A stretch of 64,000 nucleotides of DNA from Escherichia coli (GTDB lineage Bacteria > Pseudomonadota > Gammaproteobacteria > Enterobacterales > Enterobacteriaceae). A model generated the notes under the pieces. The model made no database searches. It was not told where the DNA came from and saw only the letters and a program-made list of their open reading frames with translations. The stretch lies in NCBI RefSeq assembly GCF_003018255.1, contig NZ_CP027440.1. One strand, 5' to 3'. Below are positions 30,721-42,090 of this stretch, piece by piece (the stretch's first letter is position 1; each line of letters starts with the position of its first letter). The translations under genes were made by a program, and so were the position numbers.

Positions 30721-31338
30721 ATGATTAAGGTGCATGGCGTACCCGGATGGGGCACTACAATCAGTGAGATGATGCTAACACTGGCTGATATTCCTTATCA
30801 GTTCGTTGATGTCAGTGGTTTTGACCACGAGGGAACTTCACGCGAGTTATTGAAAACCCTGAACCCGTTGTGTCAGATTCCGACACTGGCGCTGGAAAAT
30901 GACGAGATTATGACGGAGACAGCGGCGATTGCATTGATGGTTCTCGATCGTCGCCCGGACCTTGCGCCACCGGTTGGGCGCGCCGAACGTCAGCAGTTTC
31001 AACGGCTATTGGTCTGGCTGGTTGCTAATGTCTATCCAACATTCACTTTCGCCGATTACCCTGAGCGTTGGGCTCCTGACGCACCCGAACAGTTAAAGAA
31101 TAATGTTATTGAATATCGTAAATCGCTTTATATCTGGCTGAATTCACAATTGACCGCTGAACCTTATGCGTTTGGTGAGCAACTAACGCTGGTGGACTGT
31201 TATCTTTGCACCATGCGCACATGGGGGCCGGGGCATGAATGGTTTCACGATAATGCGCAGAATATCAGCTCGATCGCTGAAGCTGTATGTCAGTTACCGA
31301 AATTACAAGAAGTATTAAAAAGGAATGAAATTATTTGA
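30721..31338 (+). CDS. yncG: Glutathione S-transferase-like protein
   Basis: 205-aa ORF; GST N- and C-domain-like. Confidence 0.8.
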   Translation: MIKVHGVPGWGTTISEMMLTLADIPYQFVDVSGFDHEGTSRELLKTLNPLCQIPTLALENDEIMTETAAIALMVLDRRPDLAPPVGRAERQQFQRLLVWLVANVYPTFTFADYPERWAPDAPEQLKNNVIEYRKSLYIWLNSQLTAEPYAFGEQLTLVDCYLCTMRTWGPGHEWFHDNAQNISSIAEAVCQLPKLQEVLKRNEII

Positions 31339-31413
31339 ATGGGATACCAGAAGATTATGTTATTTATTATTCAGTAACTTTATCCACAATGATGGACGTA
31401 ATTAATTAGATTC

Positions 31414-31626
31414 ATGTTATGTTTTTTAATTTATATCACTCTCCCTTTCATTCAGCTTGTTTATTTCATTTCCTCTGAAAAGAAACTAACTATTCACATT
31501 GTGCAGATGTTTCAGTTGTTATCACAGGCATTCTATAATCTCAAAATGTTTTTAATGATGGATATGCTCGGAGTTGGAGATGCAATTAATATTAATACAA
31601 ATAAAAATATCCGGCAGGTATGCTAA
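31414..31626 (+). CDS. yncH: Small hydrophobic protein of unknown function
   Basis: 70-aa AT-rich ORF; recognised as YncH. Confidence 0.65.
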   Translation: MLCFLIYITLPFIQLVYFISSEKKLTIHIVQMFQLLSQAFYNLKMFLMMDMLGVGDAININTNKNIRQVC

Positions 31627-32461
31627 AAGGATAAATGGCGTTCTCTGTATTTATTCGCGATTATCTGTAGGACAAATATGGAGCGCTTGATGAGTCAGAG
31701 CTAAAACAGCAATTGATAAATAAACATGTTGATTTATTCAAGAAAATGGATGTATTTCAAATATTGATTCTTAATATAACCTAATCAATAGATTATCACG
31801 TGAGAGCTGCACATTATTGGAGGGGCAGGGGAAAACACCATTTTGGGAACAATGAATCAGGTACTCTTACCACTGAAGCAAGATCATCCGGGCACCAGGT
31901 GGTGGTGCAGTGCTTTGGAAATGGTCCCCTCGGGGGAGTTGTCATTATTTTCTATGCTATTTGCTTATGATATTCATCAGGTGAATTTAATAAATTCCTA
32001 ATTTTAAATATCCACTATTAAGCCAGTGTTTAACGGCGTTAAGATGGCAATGTGCAGATCATGTTATCAGAGTGGGGCGGTAGCGTATATTCCTTATACA
32101 AACCATCATTCATTTCAATGATTGTTATTGAATTATTTATTGTTGTGAATAAAAAGACATTATGAATATTGGTTTGACTTTGCATATCAGGTTTTTTATT
32201 ATTCGCTCTAATGTACGAGCCTGTCGTGAATAACGTCGAGAACCCATCCGTTGCGTTTGTGATTATTTTGTTGACTAAACAGACACCCGTTTCTCTGAAG
32301 TAAAATCCCATACTAAATCATCACATAACCATGACATTTTTCTGATATTCCCCGGTAACGCCAGATGTCGACTCGCTTATCTCATCCGCCCGACATGTTG
32401 TACATGCAATATGTGCGGATTATTATTCATTTTCACGGAGGTTGCTATGTCAACCGGATTA

Positions 32462-33753
32462 CCAGGGAAAGATCACGTAACGCTGCTTTTTTGCACTAAA
32501 TAATTCGCATTTTATGTTTAAAAATTGAGATATTCCTCATTACCTGAAGCTGTTTTTTATTGCGTATACATGTTCAAATACTCCTTACATAATTAAGGAG
32601 AACAAAATGGAACTTAAAAAATTGATGGAACATATTTCTGTTATCCCCGATTACAGACAAGCCTGGAAAGTGGAACATAAATTGTCGGATATTCTACTGT
32701 TGACTATTTGTGCCGTTATTTCTGGTGCAGAAGGCTGGGAAGATATAGAGGATTTTGGGGAAACACATCTCGATTTTTTGAAGCAATATGGTGATTTTGA
32801 AAATGGTATTCCTGTTCACGATACCATTGCCAGAGTTGTATCCTGTATCAGTCCTGCAAAATTTCACGAGTGCTTTATTAACTGGATGCGTGACTGCCAT
32901 TCTTCAGATGATAAAGACGTTATTGCAATTGATGGAAAAACGCTCCGGCATTCTTATGACAAGAGTCGCCGCAGGGGAGCGATTCATGTCATTAGTGCGT
33001 TCTCAACAATGCACAGTCTGGTCATCGGACAGATCAGGACGGATGAGAAATCCAATGAGATCACAGCTATCCCAGAACTTCTTAACATGATGGATATTAA
33101 AGGAAAAATCATCACAACTGATGCGATGGGTTGCCAGAAAGATATCGCAGATAAGATACAAAAACAGGGCGGTGATTATTTATTCGCTGTAAAAGGAAAT
33201 CAGGGGCGGCTTAATAAAGCCTTTGAGGAAAATTTCCCACTGAAAGAATTAAATAATCCAGAGCATGACAGTTACGCAATTAGTGAAAAAAGTCACGGCA
33301 GAGAAGAAATCCGTCTTCATATTGTTTGCGATGTCCCTGATGAACTTATTGATTTCATGTTTGAATGGAAAGGTCTGAAGAAATTATGCGTGGCAGTCTC
33401 CTTTCGGTCAATAATAGCAGAACAAAAGAAAGAGCCAGAAATGACGGTCAGATATTATATCAGTTCTGCTGATTTAACCGCAGAGAAGTTCGCCACAGCA
33501 ATCCGAAACCACTGGCACGTGGAGAATAAGCTGCACTGGCGTCTGGACGTGGTAATGAATGAAGACGACTGCAAAATAAGAAGAGGAAATGCAGCAGAAT
33601 TATTTTCAGGGATACGGCACATCGCTATTAATATTTTAACGAATGATAATGTATTCAAGGCAGGGTTAAGACGTAAGATGCGAAAAGCAGCCATGGACAG
33701 AAACTACCTGGCGTCAGTCCTTGCGGGGAGCGGGCTTTCGTAATCTTTCCCTG
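32462..33753 (+). mobile_element. H-repeat element (ISAs1-family insertion sequence), copy 1, about 1292 bp with imperfect terminal inverted repeats cagggaaagatca ... taatctttccctg
   Basis: Near-identical to copy 2 at 39125..40415; ends defined by where the two copies lose similarity to each other; IRs read from sequence. Confidence 0.8.
32607..33743 (+). CDS. H-repeat-associated protein / ISAs1-family transposase (378 aa)
   Basis: 378-aa ORF with AAGGAG site; about 97 percent identical to the ORF at 39269..40405; recognised as YdcC/YhhI-type H-rpt protein. Confidence 0.85.
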
Positions 33754-34359
33754 AACACCGAGGTGCTGAATAACCGCACCACGGATGTGATAAACAACCA
33801 TGCTGAGACCATCGGCAACAATCAGGTGATTGCGGTTACCAACAATCAGATACAGACGGTGGGCGTTAACCAGATAGAGACGGTGGGCAGTAACCAGATC
33901 ATTAAAGTGGGCTCTGTTCAGGTGGAAACGATTGGACTTGTTCGTGCGCTGACCGTGGGCGTGGCGTATCAGACGACGGTAGGTGGCATTATGAACACCT
34001 CGGTGGCCCTGATGCAGTCCTCGCAGATCGGTTTGCATAAATCGTTGATGGTCGGGCTGGGTTATGACGTCAAAGTCGGAAATAACGTTACCTTCACCGT
34101 TGGTAAAACGAAAAAGGATGATACCGGACAGACCGCGATTTACTCCGCCGGTGAGCATCTGGAACTCTGCTGTGGTAAGGCAAGGCTGGTGCTGACTAAG
34201 GACGGACAAATTTTTCTCAACGGCACAAAAATTCATTTGCAGGGTAAGGAGCAGGTTAATGGTGACTCACTGTTGATTAACTGGAACTGTGCAGCCTCGA
34301 AATCCCCACCGAAGACCCCTGATGAAAAGCAGGATACGCCGGATATGAGAGAGTACTGA
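33754..34359 (+). pseudogene. VgrG (T6SS spike protein) C-terminal fragment, 5'-truncated at the H-repeat boundary
   Basis: Reading frame open from the H-rpt right end; product carries VgrG C-terminal repeat motifs (VINNHAETIGNNQVIAVTNNQIQTVGVNQIETVGSNQ...). Confidence 0.7.
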
Positions 34360-34425
34360 TCCCGTACCTGTTCGGTATTCAGTAACAAACAAGCATTAAA
34401 AATAAACAGAAGAAGGAATTGAATC

Positions 34426-37400
34426 ATGAGCGGAAAACCAGCGGCGCGTCAGGGAGATATGACTCAGTATGGCGGTCCCATTGTCCAGGGTTCGGCAGGT
34501 GTAAGAATTGGCGCGCCCACCGGCGTGGCGTGCTCGGTGTGTCCGGGCGGGATGACTTCGGGCAACCCGGTAAATCCGCTGCTGGGGGCGAAGGTGCTGC
34601 CCGGCGAGACGGACCTTGCGCTGCCCGGCCCGCTGCCGTTCATTCTCTCCCGCACCTACAGCAGCTACCGGACGAAGACGCCTGCGCCGGTGGGGATTTT
34701 TGGCCCCGGCTGGAAAGCGCCTTCTGATATCCGCTTACAGATACGCGATGATGCACTGGTACTCAACGACAACGGCGGACGGAGCATTCACTTTGAGCCG
34801 CTGCTGCCGGGTGAGGCGGTGTACAGCCGCAGCGAGTCAATGTGGCTGGTGCGCGGTGGTAAGGCAGCGCAGCCGGACGGCCACACGCTGGGGCGGCTGT
34901 GGGGGGCGCTGCCGCCGGATATCCGGTTAAGCCCGCATCTTTACCTGGCGACCAGCAGCGCACAGGGACCGTGGTGGATACTGGGGTGGTCAGAGCGGGT
35001 GCCGGGTGCTGAGGACGTACTGCCAGCGCCGCTGCCGCCGTACCGGGTGCTGACGGGGCTGGCGGACCGCTTCGGGCGGACGCTGACGTACCGGCGTGAG
35101 GCCGCCGGCGACCTGGCCGGGGAAATCACCGGCGTGACGGACGGTGCCGGGCGTGAGTTCCGTCTGGTGCTGACCACGCAGGCGCAGCGTGCGGAAGAGG
35201 CCCGCACCTCTTCGCTATCTTCTTCTGACCGTCCCCGCCCTCTCTCAGTCTCAGCGTTCCCCGACACACTGCCCGGTACCGAATACGGCCCCGACAGGGG
35301 TATCCGCCTTTCGGCGGTGTGGCTGATGCACGACCCGGCATACCCGGAGAGCCTGCCCGGTGCGCCACTGGTGCGGTACACGTATACGGAAGCCGGTGAA
35401 CTGCTGGCGGTATATGACCGCAGCAATACGCAGGTGCGCGCTTTCACGTATGACGCGCAGCACCCGGGCCGGATGGTGGCGCACCGTTACGCGGGAAGGC
35501 CGGAGATGCGCTACCGCTACGACGATGCGGGGCGGGTGGTGGAGCAGCTGAACCCGGCAGGCCTGAGTTACCGCTACCAGTATGAGCAGGACCGCATCAC
35601 CGTCACCGACAGCCTGAACCGGCGTGAGGTGCTGCATACAGAAGGCGGGGCCGGGCTGAAGCGGGTGGTGAAAAAAGAACTGGCGGACGGCAGCGTCACG
35701 CACAGCGGGTATGACGCGGCAGGAAGGCTCACGGCACAGACGGACGCGGCGGGACGGCGGACAGAGTACGGCCTGAATGTGGTGTCCGGCGATATCACGG
35801 ATATCACCACGCCGGACGGGCGGGAGACGAAATTTTACTATAACGACGGGAACCAGTTAACGGCGGTGGTGTACCCGGACGGGCTGGAGAGCAGCCGGGC
35901 ATATGATGAGCTGGACAGACTGGTATCGGAGACATCGCGCAGCGGGGAGACAGTACGCTACCGCTACGATGACGTGCACAGTGAGTTACCGGCGACGACA
36001 ACGGATGCGACGGGCAGCACCCGGCAGATGACCTGGAGCCGCTACGGGCAGTTGCTGGCCTTCACCGACTGCTCGGGCTACCAGACCCGCTATGAATACG
36101 ACCGCTTCGGCCAGATGACGGCGGTTCACCGCGAGGAAGGTATCAGCCTTTACCGCCACTATGACAACCGTGGCCGGTTAACCTCGGTGAAAGACGCACA
36201 GGGCCGTGAAACGCAGTATGAGTACAACGCCGCAGGCGACCTGACTGCCGTTATCACCCCGGACGGCAACCGGAGCGAGACACAGTACGATGCGTGGGGA
36301 AAGGCGGTCAGCACCACGCAGGGCGGGCTGACGCGCAGTATGGAGTACGATGCTGCCGGACGTGTCATCAGCCTGACCAACGAGAACGGCAGTCACAGCG
36401 ACTTCAGCTACGATGCGCTGGACCGCCTGGTACAGCAGGGCGGCTTTGACGGGCGGACGCAACGTTATCATTATGACCTGACCGGAAAACTCACGCAGAG
36501 TGAAGATGAGGGGCTTGTCATCCTCTGGTACTACGATGAATCGGACCGTATCACTCACCGCACGGTGAACGGCGAACCGGCAGAGCAGTGGCAGTATGAT
36601 GGCCACGGCTGGCTGAGAGAAATCAGCCACCTGAGCGAAGGCCACCGTGTTGCCGTCCACTATGGCTACGACGATAAGGGCCGTCTGACCGGGGAGCGCC
36701 AGACGGTGGAGAACCCGGAGACGGGGGAACTGCTGTGGCAGCATGAGACGAAACAGGCATACAACGAACAGGGGCTGGCAAACCGCGTCACGCCGGACAG
36801 CCTGCCGCCGGTGGAGTGGCTGGCCTATGGCAGCGGTTATCTGGCGGGCATGAAGCTGGGCGGGACGCCGCTGCTGGAGTACATGCGGGACAGACTGCAC
36901 CGGGAGACGGTGCGCAGCTTCGGCAGCATGGCAGGCAATACAGCCGCATATGAACTGACCAGCACTTACACCCCCGCAGGCCAGTTACAGAGCCGGCACC
37001 TGAACAGCCTGGTGTTTGATTGTGACTATAACTGGAATGACAACGGCGACCTGATGCGCATCAGCGGCCCGCGACAGACGCGGGAATACGGCTACAGCGC
37101 CACGGGCAGGCTGGAGAGCGTGCGCACCCTCGCACCGGACCTGGACATCCGCATCCCGTATGCCACCGACCCGGCGGGCAACCGGCTGCCGGACCCGGAG
37201 CTGCACCCGGACAGTACACTCACAGTGTGGCCGGATAACCGAATCACCGAAGACGCGCACTACCTGTACCGTTACGATGAATACGGCAGGCTGGCGGAGA
37301 AGACGGACCGCATCCCGGCGGGTGTGATACGGACGGACGACGAGCGGACCCACCACTACCACTACGACAGCCAGCACCGCCTGGTGTTCTATACGCGGAT

Positions 37401-38586
37401 ACAGCATGGCGAGCCACTGGTCGAGAGCCGCTACCTTTACGACCCGCTGGGCCGCCGGACGGGTAAACGGGTATGGCGGCGGGAGCGTGACCTGACGGGG
37501 TGGATGTCGCTGTCGCGTAAACCGGAGGTGACGTGGTACGGCTGGGACGGCGACCACCTGACGACGGTGCAGACCGACACCACGCGTATCCAGACGGTAT
37601 ATCAGCCGGGGAGCTTCGCGCCGCTCATCCGCATCGAAACAGACAACGGTGAGCGGGAGAAAGCGCAGCGCCGCAGCCTGGCGGAGAAGCTGCAGCAGGA
37701 AGGGAGCGAGGACGGGCACGGCGTGGTATTTCCGGCTGAACTGGTGCGGCTGCTGGACAGACTGGAGGAAGAAATCCGGGCAGACCGCGTGAGCAGTGAA
37801 AGCCGGGCGTGGCTTGCGCAGTGCGGGCTGACGGTGGAGCAACTGGAAAAACAGGTGGAGCCGGAATACACACCGGCGCGAAAAGTTCATCTTTACCACT
37901 GCGACCACCGGGGACTGCCGCTGGCGCTTATCAGCGAAGACGGCAATACGGTGTGGAGCGCGGAGTATGATGAATGGGGAAACCTGCTTAATGAGGAGAA
38001 CCCGCATCATGTGTATCAGTCATACCGTCTGCCGGGGCAGCAGCATGATGAGGAGTCGGGGCTGTACTACAACCGGAACCGGTACTACGATCCGTTGCAG
38101 GGGCGGTATATCATCCAGGACCCGATAGGGCTGGCGGGGGGAATAAACCCGTACAGTTATGTTATGAACAATCCTGTGCAATGGATTGATCCATTGGGAT
38201 TAGCTCATACTTCAGGAAAATGGAAGGACTGTGGTAAAGGTTGTCGAATCCGAATAGATGGCGATGCTGTTGGTGACGGAAGACATTTGCATTGGGAGTG
38301 TAAAAATGGGAGTGGTGTAATGGGGGAATTTGGAGGTATGTCCCATGGTGAGGATTACTCATCAGCACCAAATAGCATTAAGAAATGTGCAAAAAAATAT
38401 GGTTTCGAGCCAGAACCAAGTAAAGATCTGTCATGCAAAACCTCCGGGCTATCAACTACTGATGCGGCTCTTGCAACTGGTGCTACAATTGGCGCAGGGT
38501 ATGTTATATATAGAGTGATTCGATTTATACCTTCACTTGCACCACCTCTTTGGTGGTCAATACCTGCAAACGTTGTTACTCCATGA
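34426..38586 (+). CDS. rhsE: Rhs-family polymorphic toxin with N-terminal PAAR motif, YD-repeat core and divergent C-terminal domain (1386 aa)
   Basis: Literal PAAR at residues 5-8 ([11 protein letters not shown]); numerous YD repeats; conserved core end DPIGLAGG...DPLGL at 38119-38202; sharp GC-rich to AT-rich switch after about 38160. Confidence 0.9.
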
Positions 38587-38612
38587 TTAAAACGGATAAT
38601 GGAGATTATATA

Positions 38613-38957
38613 ATGAGCGATTTTGACATTGTGAGTTCAATTGACTGGCATGATGGGGTTTTGTTAGAAGTAAAAACGACATTCAAAGAATCTCATTTTA
38701 ACATGACGTTATTTATTGACATTTATAAAAATGAGAACATTAGGGAAAAAATGATAGTTGAATTTTCTGATGTAGATGATTTAGTGTTCGCTATGGATTC
38801 TGCTGAGTTAATCGATAATCACAAGTCAGGTAATATAAGTAATGGGTATGTAAAGAAATTAAAAAACAAAAGGATATATAAATTTTTTCTTTATTTTTCT
38901 GATGGCTTATTAAGCATGACATTTAAAAATTTACAATTAATAAAACCATTAGAGTAA
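38613..38957 (+). CDS. Putative Rhs immunity protein (small AT-rich ORF downstream of the Rhs C-terminal domain)
   Basis: ORF 38550..38957; ATG 38613 preceded by GGAG at 8-nt spacing (114 aa); alternative ATG 38583 overlaps the rhsE stop as ATGA (124 aa); position and AT-richness typical of Rhs immunity genes. Confidence 0.55.
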   Translation: MSDFDIVSSIDWHDGVLLEVKTTFKESHFNMTLFIDIYKNENIREKMIVEFSDVDDLVFAMDSAELIDNHKSGNISNGYVKKLKNKRIYKFFLYFSDGLLSMTFKNLQLIKPLE

Positions 38958-39124
38958 CCAAATAAAAGGACTGGAGGAATCAGGGGAAGATCATTAAAGT
39001 TGTGATTATCATCACAACTTTAATCTTGGTTTCACCTTGTTGATTTGATTAAAATTTAATCGCCAAATAATTAAATATATTAGAAAAGGACGTCTGGTGA
39101 ACATTCAAAGTCTTCTTGAGCATA

Positions 39125-40415
39125 CAGGGAAAGATCATCAGAAGTACACTTTTTGTACTAAATAATTCGCATTTTATGTTTAAAAATTGAGATATTCCTC
39201 ATTACCTAAAGCTGTTTTTTATTGCTTATACATGATCAAATACTCCTTACATAATTAAGGAGAACAAAATGGAACTTAAAAAATTGATGGGACATATTTC
39301 TATTATCCCCGATTACAGACAAACCTGGAAAGTGGAACATAAATTGTCAGATATTCTACTGTTGATTATTAGTGCCGTTATTTCTGGTGCAGAAGGCTGG
39401 GAAGATATAGAGGATTTTGGGGAAACACATCTCGATTTTTTAAAGCAATATGGTGATTTTAAAAATGGTATTCCTGTTCACGATACCATTGCCAGAGTTG
39501 TATCCTGTATCAGTCCTGCAAAATTTCACGAGTGCTTTATTAACTGGATGCGTGACTGCCATTCTTCAGATGATAAAGACGTCATTGCAATTGATGGAAA
39601 AACGCTCCGGCATTCTTATGACAAGAGTCGTCGCAGGGGAGCGATTCATGTCATTAGTGCATTCTCAACAATGCACAGTCTGGTCATCGGACAGATCAGG
39701 ACGGATGAGAAATCTAATGAGATTACAGCTATCCCTGAACTTCTTAACATGCTGGACATTAAAGGAAAAATTATCACAACTGATGCGATGGGTTGCCAGA
39801 AAGATATTGCAGAGAAGATACAAAAACAGGGAGGTGATTATTTATTCTCTGTAAAAGGAAACCCGGGGCGGCTGAATAAAGCTTTTGAGGAAAAATTTCC
39901 ACTGAAAGAATTAAATAATCCAGAGCATGACAGTTACGCAATTAGTGAAAAGAGTCACGGCAGAGAAGAAATCCGTCTTCACATTGTTTGCGATGTCCCT
40001 GATGAACTTATTGATTTCACGTTTGAATGGAAAGGTCTGAAGAAATTATGCGTGGCAGTCTCCTTTCGGTCAATAATAGCAGAACAAAAGAAAGAGCCAG
40101 AAATGACGGTCAGATATTATATCAGTTCTGCTGATTTAACCGCAGAGATGTTCGCCACAGCAATCCGAAACCACTGGCACGTGGAGAATAAGCTGCACTG
40201 GCGTCTGGACGTGGTAATGAATGAAGACGACTGCAAAATAAGAAGAGGAAACGCCGCAGAATTATTTTCAGGGATACGGCACATCGCTATTAATATTTTA
40301 ACGAATGATAAGGTATTCAAGGCAGGGTTAAGACGTAAGATGCGAAAAGCAGCCATGGACAAAAACTATCTGGCGTCAGTCCTTGCGGGGAGCGGGCTTT
40401 CGTAATCTTTCCCTG
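39125..40415 (+). mobile_element. H-repeat element (ISAs1-family insertion sequence), copy 2, about 1291 bp, same orientation as copy 1
   Basis: Near-identical to 32462..33753 including terminal inverted repeats. Confidence 0.8.
39269..40405 (+). CDS. H-repeat-associated protein / ISAs1-family transposase (378 aa)
   Basis: 378-aa ORF with AAGGAG site; paralogue of 32607..33743. Confidence 0.85.
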
Positions 40416-40419
40416 TATT

Positions 40420-40707
40420 GTGAAATCATCAAGAGTACATATAGATCATGATAAAGATATTTTTGATGGCCTTGACAAAATCTTGGCTTTTTCCGATAAA
40501 AATAAGCATGAGTATTTTTTATATATAAAGGCATATTGGCTCAGTTTATACTTTTGTGAAATTTCTCAGAAAGTGAGAGAAAGAGATAAGTTGTCATTTT
40601 ATTATGATGAATTTTCTGTCCGATTTCCTAATGTTGTCCTATATCCGACATACTTCCAATTGCATGGTTTAGCATCTGAAAAGTCATTGTTAATTCGAGA
40701 CGCTTGA
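40420..40707 (+). other. AT-rich reading frame open from the H-repeat right boundary (95 codons); probable 3' remnant of a gene truncated by the insertion
   Basis: Frame is open right at the element end; no recognisable product. Confidence 0.3.
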
Positions 40708-40986
40708 TTGTCCACTATATCAAAATAGTCATGCCCCGGAATTTTCTCACATTAGTCCATAAGGGATTCAATTTTTGTAATTGCACCCTGAAAAAACCGC
40801 AAAAGTGCTTTGTCGTGTCCTGTCGCAATGAAGTCTGGTGTTAATGTTATACTTTAATTGATATTTAAAGAGATGGCTTCTTTGCTTATATAAATACCCA
40901 TCTATTCTTTCTCAAAAATATTGGCTCAGATTAACCATGTTCCACGCAAACAATTTTCAAACATTCATCAATAGATAAGGAATTCC

Positions 40987-41454
40987 ATGATTATACGACC
41001 AGTCAAACCTTCAGATGTTGAACCATTACTGGATATGCTGCTTGCCAGTGGACAATTTAATCAAGATGGCCTTCATCATGTACAAAAAACACTAACACAT
41101 TATTTCTCAGGTCAATCTGCCGATTTATGGTTTAGTGCAGAACACTTAGGACTGGCAGGGATTGCCTATTGCGCTCCTGAAGTGATGACAAATGATGTCT
41201 GGAATTTATTAATGCACTGGATCAGTCCTTCCCATCAGCGCCAGGGAGTGGGACATCTGCTGATTAACGAAATAGAAAAGGAGCTCACAATTAAACAGGC
41301 AAGACTACTTTTAGTAGAGACCTCCAGCTATGTCGATTTTAGTGCCGCCCGCGCATTTTATACATAACAGGGCTTTATCAATGAAGCTATAATACGCAAT
41401 TACTATGATGTTGGTGAGGATAAATTAATCTTCACTAAAAATATGCAATCGTGA
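40987..41454 (+). pseudogene. GNAT-family N-acetyltransferase interrupted by an in-frame TAA at 41365-41367
   Basis: ORF 40987..41367 (126 aa) continues in the same frame for 28 more codons to TGA 41452-41454; sequence around the stop reads AFYT*QGF versus the GNAT consensus FY.K.GF. Confidence 0.6.
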
Positions 41455-41520
41455 GATAAAATATGCTTTTAACTCATATTGAAACATTGCTTAAGCAACT
41501 TGGTTGCTGCATATGATTCT

Positions 41521-42090
41521 TTAGCCCGCGGTGACTCGCTTGCCGCTGGTAACAAACGTGCCAGCGCCTAAATGATGCAACGTATTGAGCTTATCATCAT
41601 CAAACTGCCAGCGGCCTTCGACAAATACCCGTGCGTCTGCCGCTGCTGATACCACTTCGCCAAACAGCGTGTCGTATTTCTCTTGCGCGGAAGTCGCTGG
41701 TAGCAATCGGCACTCCATCCACGCCAGACATTTCTCTTCAACAAGTGGCAAACCAAGCACCGGACCTTTCACCACCGGAATGCCATAGCAATAAAATTTA
41801 TCCTCTTCACGCCCAGATACACTTCCCACTGCCCACGTCCAGTTAGTCGCTGCAACGCCTGGGATAACGATGCCAAATTTACCGTTACGCTCAATCAACT
41901 CCCTGGTCCATGTCGACTTATCTACCACAATCGCCACGCGTGGAGGTTCAAACTCCACCGGCATTGACCAGGCTGCAGCCATAATGTTACGCCGCTGGGA
42001 TTGCTCATCGAAACTGGTGATCAAGACAGTTGGGCCATGATTTAACAGACGGCTGGCATGGTGTAATTCGACGGGAATGAATTGGCTCAC
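41521..42090 (-). CDS. yddH: Flavin reductase-like domain protein
   Basis: 189-aa ORF; recognised as YddH. Confidence 0.8.
   Translation of the reverse strand: MSQFIPVELHHASRLLNHGPTVLITSFDEQSQRRNIMAAAWSMPVEFEPPRVAIVVDKSTWTRELIERNGKFGIVIPGVAATNWTWAVGSVSGREEDKFYCYGIPVVKGPVLGLPLVEEKCLAWMECRLLPATSAQEKYDTLFGEVVSAAADARVFVEGRWQFDDDKLNTLHHLGAGTFVTSGKRVTAG

Follow-up and report, generated by a model that had tools for sequence, protein, structure and literature searches.

The 95-codon reading frame at positions 40420-40707 of the window (the whole 64,000-nt stretch of Escherichia coli DNA analysed here) is, with a probability that we put at about 0.85, a non-functional relic of an orphan, putative EndoU immunity gene that was truncated at the end of an insertion sequence (IS). 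The length of the frame alone is weak evidence and only mildly unusual: when the 600 nt on the right-hand side of the IS are shuffled by mononucleotide, 2.9% of the shuffled sequences have a stop-free run of at least 96 codons. What is decisive for a real gene is that other genomes hold an intact gene whose 3' part matches the frame, in register, at 92-97% DNA identity.

A gene fragment at the edge of an H-repeat

The whole window is the E. coli RhsE region (yncG to yddH-nhoA), and in a megablast search of complete E. coli genomes DETEC-S792 (NZ_CP116067) was 100% identical to it over the query. Its gene order is yncE-ansP-yncG, ISAs1 copy 1, a 5'-truncated vgrG, a 1386-aa Rhs protein, a 114-aa gene, ISAs1 copy 2, the 95-codon frame, a GNAT gene and the yddH-nhoA-yddE-narZ operon. 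Copy 2 (39125..40415, + strand, 1291 bp) is an ISAs1-family H-repeat and a ydcC homologue, recognised by its inverted repeats and by its direct repeat with copy 1; its transposase ORF lies at 39269-40405. The terminal inverted repeats read CAGGGAAAGATC... on the left and ...CTTTCCCTG on the right, CAGGGAAAG at 39125 pairing with CTTTCCCTG. PGAP calls this copy an 'ISAs1 family transposase' in the 100% identical record, and it shares 96.5% identity with ydcC of K-12. Copy 1 (32463-33753, also 1291 bp) stands in a 6662-nt direct repeat with copy 2 and has the same terminal inverted repeats.

Two further features of the neighbourhood were noticed. A sequence resembling the left end of the IS, CAGGGGAAGATCAT (the left inverted repeat being CAGGGAAAGATCA), lies some 130 nt upstream of where copy 2 truly starts, and a perfect 14-nt inverted repeat (38993-39006 and 39011-39024) comes after it. 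This segment, 38981-39024, is possibly a solo IS end, or else a terminator that follows the Rhs immunity gene. An Rfam scan of 38900-41600 returned nothing credible. On the other side, comparison with the 155-aa allele of PT62 shows that the GNAT gene (40987-41454) has acquired an in-frame nonsense codon, K127 having become TAA at 41365-41367, and the resulting 126-aa stub is annotated by RefSeq as a normal CDS. The 5' region of this gene (40830-41292) is wholly deleted in genomes of the CFSAN061770 and PCN033 types.

The program-made ORF list gives the frame as 40420-40707 on the + strand, 95 aa from a GTG start, with a GC content of 31%, in agreement with the 95-codon AT-rich frame of the preliminary description. 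That description also had the frame beginning at the first base past the element and opening exactly at the right end of the H-repeat, and on both points it needs correcting. The IS ends at 40415, making the GTG the fifth base after the boundary, and the frame is stop-free already from 40339, the preceding stop being at 40336-40338. The additional 27 stop-free codons (40339..40419, + strand) overlap the C-terminus of the transposase; 40339-40415 lie inside the right end of the IS and 40416-40419 are retained gene DNA. None of ATG, GTG or TTG occurs in frame within 40339..40419, and the GTG at 40420..40422 (+ strand) is the first possible start codon. A 115-aa database protein (P0015) is this same open frame, extended into the IS, as called on an assembly. 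The earlier remark that the frame has no ribosome-binding site of its own was borne out: the 25 nt before the GTG (GGGCTTTCGTAATCTTTCCCTGTATT) contain no Shine-Dalgarno motif of the GGAG/AGGA type. Scanning 40100-41100 likewise gave no sigma-70-like promoter on the + strand, nor is a terminator-like site predicted there, including between the transposase gene and the remnant.

We used positions 40405-40990 as a megablast query against 5426 complete E. coli genomes to see what lies here elsewhere. In 11 genomes that have no IS at this point the match starts at 40416, one base past the end of the element, and the homology to uninterrupted genomes thus breaks at the terminal inverted repeat. The same DNA in two of them, the Rhs-free GF4-3 and PT62, is the 3' part of a 663-nt CDS for a protein of 220 aa, named 'aminopeptidase' or 'hypothetical protein', while the full-length CDS of CFSAN061770 and KE47 encodes 211 aa. 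The full-length gene of 211-220 aa extends the window frame by 129-130 codons upstream, and the frame is collinear and in register with residues 131-217 of the 220-aa protein, at about 90% amino-acid identity. By this comparison the frame is the C-terminal 40% or so of a 220-residue gene whose 5' end has been cut at the ISAs1/H-repeat edge, as the preliminary description had supposed. The alleles align such that the GTG at 40420 is the internal codon for Val131 and not a native start. An ancestral short form is excluded by the extra 129-130 in-frame codons, which are conserved across genera.

The remnant as a whole, 40416..40707 on the + strand, starts with the last base of codon 129, runs on through codons 130-217 and ends in a tail of eight frameshifted codons. 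The tail stems from a 1-nt insertion in an A-run (40679..40682, + strand; AAAA, against AAA in the other six aligned alleles, intact and truncated alike), which turns the native end ...SHC-stop into ...KSLLIRDA-stop. Past the motif 'FPNVxLY' the protein tail is variable across the 220-aa family anyway.

A search with the full gene found it in 237 of the 5426 complete genomes, full-length in 194 and truncated in about 43; the other 5189, K-12 among them, are without the sequence altogether. Thus the comparison with genomes lacking the H-repeat that the preliminary description had proposed turned up homologues that do extend the frame upstream. Among the matches listed, truncated copies start at base 387 of the query, with the exception of GF43, which starts at 450 and has lost about 54 nt more than the other truncated copies. 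In the listed records of the ydcC type, the match runs unbroken across the IS end into the remnant. The junction being common to the truncated genomes, we take it to derive from one ancestral event. Codon 131 reads GTA in all four intact alleles that were compared and GTG in both truncated ones (loci L009, L001, L002, L011 and L013, and the window). Neither of the two truncated allele types aligned has gained an in-frame stop. Truncated and intact alleles differ at few sites and are recombinant mosaics; the PCN033 remnant, for example, is window-like over its first ~85 nt and CFSAN-like from there on.

How the truncation arose

The preliminary description attributed the truncation to the insertion of the element. 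The gene is indeed cut at the IS end, but several observations speak against a simple insertion. No target-site duplication accompanies either IS copy, the ends showing no direct repeat, and tblastn did not find the 5' part of the 220-aa gene anywhere in the window. To the left of copy 2 lies the Rhs immunity region. Compared with the Rhs-free genome GF4-3, 9079 bp of the window (31337-40415) replace 2774 bp, which in GF4-3 hold four small genes and codons 1-129. The truncation therefore seems to be a deletion or replacement next to the IS and not a simple insertion.

The small genes of GF4-3 deserve a description of their own. They lie between yncG and the GNAT gene (L001 3495-5256), encode hypothetical proteins of 90, 108, 129 and 186 aa without a family, precede the intact gene and are all lost from the window. 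They may be an array of orphan immunity genes.

A second arrangement, found in CFSAN061770 and KE47, appears to be the commonest among genomes with the full-length gene. It has the same right end of the IS some 1.4 kb farther to the left, upstream of the gene for the 186-aa protein, and PCN033, a genome with the truncated form, has a right flank that shares 97.5% identity with the CFSAN061770-type arrangement from the junction onward. Taken together, these two observations make a 1.4-kb deletion running rightward from the IS end the simplest history, although it would be one parsimonious history among several. Under such a model, the ancestral yncG-yddH intergenic island would have held the gene in its intact form of 211-220 aa, complete with a Shine-Dalgarno sequence. 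A deletion starting from the right end of the ISAs1/H-repeat would then have taken the upstream 186-aa gene and codons 1-129 (L011 8983-10386 in CFSAN061770 coordinates), fusing the IS end to codon 129/130, and a later 1-nt slippage in the A-run would have changed the last codons.

The ISAs1 copy of CFSAN061770 is itself split (L011 3836-8982): between its left 155 nt and right 463 nt lie 4.5 kb of PAAR-VgrG-M35-like peptidase-immunity cargo, which gives the impression that the interior of the element was exchanged for T6SS cargo. Genomes with a full-length gene seem to have this split form most often. In the window, the right end of copy 1 also carries a 5'-truncated gene, the vgrG fragment at 33754-34350, and copy 1 replaces about 1.5 kb of vgrG compared with PCN033. 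Both IS copies thus show loss of the gene adjacent to their right end, and they bracket vgrG'-rhs-rhsI in the manner of a composite transposon.

The H-repeats of the K-12 RhsE locus (ydcC and yncI) offer a close comparison. The same 1291-bp element occupies the same side of the locus there, and truncation at its edge is typical of IS-mediated decay. K-12, however, has pptA to the right of ydcC with no remnant of the 220-aa gene, and the window has a second copy that truncates vgrG.

A putative EndoU immunity family

Neither Pfam nor NCBIfam gave a significant match for the fragment, for the intact protein or for the small ORFs of the Rhs-free island, and for the 220-aa family Pfam gave nothing even at E <= 1. 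A word-indexed search of 5.8 billion proteins found 13 homologous clusters, and an exhaustive phmmer search of 1.84 billion representatives gave 13 matches with identities down to 26%. The AlphaFold2 model of the intact protein, made from a 14-sequence alignment, is a single all-alpha domain of 12 helices (pLDDT 87, pTM 0.85). The protein matched no PDB chain by sequence, and comparison of the modelled fold found no match either. The name 'aminopeptidase' in RefSeq and UniRef found no peptidase family or fold behind it in Pfam, NCBIfam, PDB sequences or fold comparison.

In five lineages, at 26-63% identity, an ORF with an EndoU_bacteria domain ends 9-17 nt upstream of the homologue on the same strand, and these toxins sit in T6SS, Rhs or pyocin-type polymorphic-toxin clusters. 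The homologue of Pseudocitrobacter faecalis (P0009, 63% identity; L004-6) lies 17 nt past an EndoU_bacteria ORF (PF14436, 57 bits) in a T6SS effector cluster with DUF2169 and a Tox-PAAR-like effector. That of Shigella flexneri (P0013, 52%; L007) follows an 88-aa EndoU remnant, and one on a metagenome contig (P0012, 51%; L008) follows the last 38 residues of an EndoU toxin. The more distant P0022 (35%; L014-L016) comes after a Pyocin_S+EndoU module. The toxin-tip modules of this locus form an array with a ColD/Colicin_immun pair among them, which in L014 consists of pyocin_S-CTD modules with downstream genes. P0023 (26%; L017-L019) comes after an EndoU ORF beside Rhs-repeat fragments. Two members, P0014 (59%; L021, L022) and P0020 (37%; L020), are orphans without an adjacent toxin, and P0018 has no contig placement. 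The toxin tips are 55-69% identical to one another and their partners 27-57%, so that the two diverge together, the partner faster.

Some of these loci have peculiarities of their own. The Pseudocitrobacter effector (L004 3235-4400) is called as two overlapping ORFs of 272 aa and 135 aa, the latter with the EndoU domain, which suggests a frameshift or a mis-call of one effector, and its N-terminal part is shared with a differently tipped effector in L008. P0020 is a 401-aa member with N- and C-terminal extensions, placed directly after flgN in a flagellar cluster (L020 5001-6206) with no toxin nearby.

In polymorphic toxin systems, an adjacent partner that diverges together with a toxin is the classic mark of the cognate immunity protein (PMC3482391). 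Since the family occupies the slot directly 3' of an EndoU tip in five divergent lineages, we read it as an EndoU immunity protein. On this evidence from gene neighbourhood, we consider it likely that the intact 220-aa family is an uncurated EndoU immunity family without a known structural relative. Its members would bind and neutralise EndoU-type (BECR-fold) RNase domains of polymorphic effectors, whether T6SS PAAR-like/DUF2169, Rhs or pyocin-S-type.

In E. coli the gene stands by itself. A distant blastn search with the toxin+immunity module of Pseudocitrobacter matched the immunity part and 20 nt upstream only, in all 237 genomes. No EndoU remnant was detected upstream of the intact E. coli gene, where tblastn at E <= 10 gave matches at noise level only, and DNA conservation upstream of the intact ATG is limited to the last ~25 nt, which include an AAGG ribosome-binding site. 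The family thus occurs in orphan cassette arrays (L014, and the Rhs-fragment array of L018), beside a toxin remnant (L007) and as stand-alone orphans of E. coli. E. coli would have kept the immunity gene alone, and the orphan plausibly protects against EndoU effectors of neighbouring Enterobacteriaceae.

The foremost alternative, which we regard as unlikely, is that the 220-aa family is some other companion of EndoU (an adaptor, chaperone or regulator) or really is an 'aminopeptidase', the window then holding a truncated copy of that. The name is attached to WP_171459403 as well as to UniRef entries, and no significant profile or solved-member match to a named immunity family (Pfam Imm*, SUKH, SuFu-like, CdiI) was found for the 220-aa protein, including the SUKH, Imm-SuFu and Imm28 families linked to Tox-EndoU (PMC3482391). 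The protein also differs in predicted fold from the one structurally characterised EndoU immunity protein compared, so that the two represent different families, ours being uncurated. CdiA-CT/CdiI of E. coli STEC_O31 (PDB 5HKQ) pairs an EndoU-type tRNase with an immunity protein that a review table lists as alpha/beta (PMC9086364). The two cases are alike in the class of toxin, a bacterial EndoU/BECR RNase, and in the proposed binding and blocking of it by the immunity protein. They are set apart by that table's description against the all-alpha prediction here, with no PDB-chain or fold match, and by delivery, which for the partners of our family is T6SS, Rhs or pyocin-type and not CDI. Nevertheless, no peptidase match appeared at any level, and the slot 3' of a toxin tip, in orphan cassette arrays and beside a ColD/immunity pair, is the canonical position of an immunity gene. 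T6SS adaptors (DUF2169, DUF4123) sit upstream of their effectors and are separately present in these loci. The persistence of the gene without a toxin in E. coli, finally, is what orphan immunity genes show.

The immunity reading also bears on the suggestion in the preliminary description that the frame is an orphan toxin-tip or immunity remnant of an Rhs locus. The orphan-immunity part of this idea gains from homologues that lie directly behind EndoU domains, one of them in an Rhs-fragment array, but the remnant is not an orphan of the window's own Rhs element. The C-terminal toxin of that element is Tox-WTIP (PF15654), followed by a 114-aa immunity gene that belongs to it, and the 220-aa gene is already present at the same locus in Rhs-free genomes. 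Both the identity of the tip and the presence of the gene at the locus before the Rhs rule out a tip or immunity gene displaced from this element. The remnant is part of an island that was resident earlier at a T6SS/Rhs cargo hotspot; in other strains, the yncG-yddH hotspot holds PAAR-VgrG-M35 peptidase cargo. This resembles the orphan immunity genes and cassette remnants of Rhs, CDI and T6SS loci (Zhang et al. 2012, PMC3482391) in having a small gene directly 3' of a toxin tip in several taxa, arrays of displaced cassettes, persistence without the toxin and a hypervariable T6SS/Rhs cargo hotspot. It differs from them in that the 220-aa family matches no named Imm family, the E. coli gene predates the local Rhs and the window copy is a 5'-truncated fragment only.

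Fate of the remnant and of the locus

We think that the remnant is almost certainly non-functional, because it has no promoter, ribosome-binding site or native start and because 59% of a single domain is missing. The cut falls inside the helix at residues 114-136 of the AlphaFold2 model, and four to five of the 12 helices are kept. Of the 32 invariant or nearly invariant alignment columns, 26 lie in the lost N-terminal 130 residues, a count somewhat biased by one truncated member of the alignment. Decay would be expected, though no in-frame stop has arisen in either truncated allele type seen.

Continued expression would require read-through of the transposase mRNA and termination-reinitiation at the GTG, giving a fragment with some activity such as partial toxin binding, and to this we give little chance. 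The remnant has the same orientation as the transposase gene with no predicted terminator between them, so that co-transcription is possible, and the GTG lies 14 nt past the transposase TAA. Among the alleles examined GTG is confined to truncated ones, which may reflect hitch-hiking or else selection for a start. The fragment also keeps NKHEYFxYxxAYWLSLYF, the C-terminal motif that is conserved best, and its frame is undisturbed in the two types of truncated allele. Slightly less probable still is the specific form of this idea in which an A-to-G change made the GTA of Val131 into a GTG start, and reinitiation after the transposase would yield a 95-residue fragment with partial EndoU-toxin binding or a new role. 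However, the missing Shine-Dalgarno sequence would have to be overcome, and what remains of a domain confidently modelled as one unit has been cut within a helix and lacks eight of 12 helices and most invariant residues. There is no stand-alone family of the C-terminal part, short matches to it being contig-edge or partial calls. In addition, GF43 has eroded the fragment further, and K-12 and the great majority of complete genomes do without the sequence. That the frame is a chance ORF in an AT-rich spacer beside the IS has a negligible probability, since, for all its only mildly unusual length and the absence of a RefSeq annotation over it, it is homologous in frame to a cross-genus family whose distant members are still recognisable at 26% identity.

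The relic of a truncated immunity gene is thus a case of ordinary IS-mediated gene decay: an unannotated pseudogene fragment that documents the erosion, by an IS, of the T6SS/Rhs cargo hotspot between yncG and yddH in E. coli. The series of locus states (Rhs-free, CFSAN061770-type, PCN033/window-type, GF43 and K-12) is useful for reconstructing how H-repeats remodel Rhs loci. Of modest novelty is that a family labelled 'aminopeptidase' or 'hypothetical protein' by RefSeq can be re-read as a probable EndoU-toxin immunity family, whose full-length orphan, carried by about 3.6% of complete E. coli genomes (194/5426), is possibly an acquired defence against the EndoU effectors of other Enterobacteriaceae.
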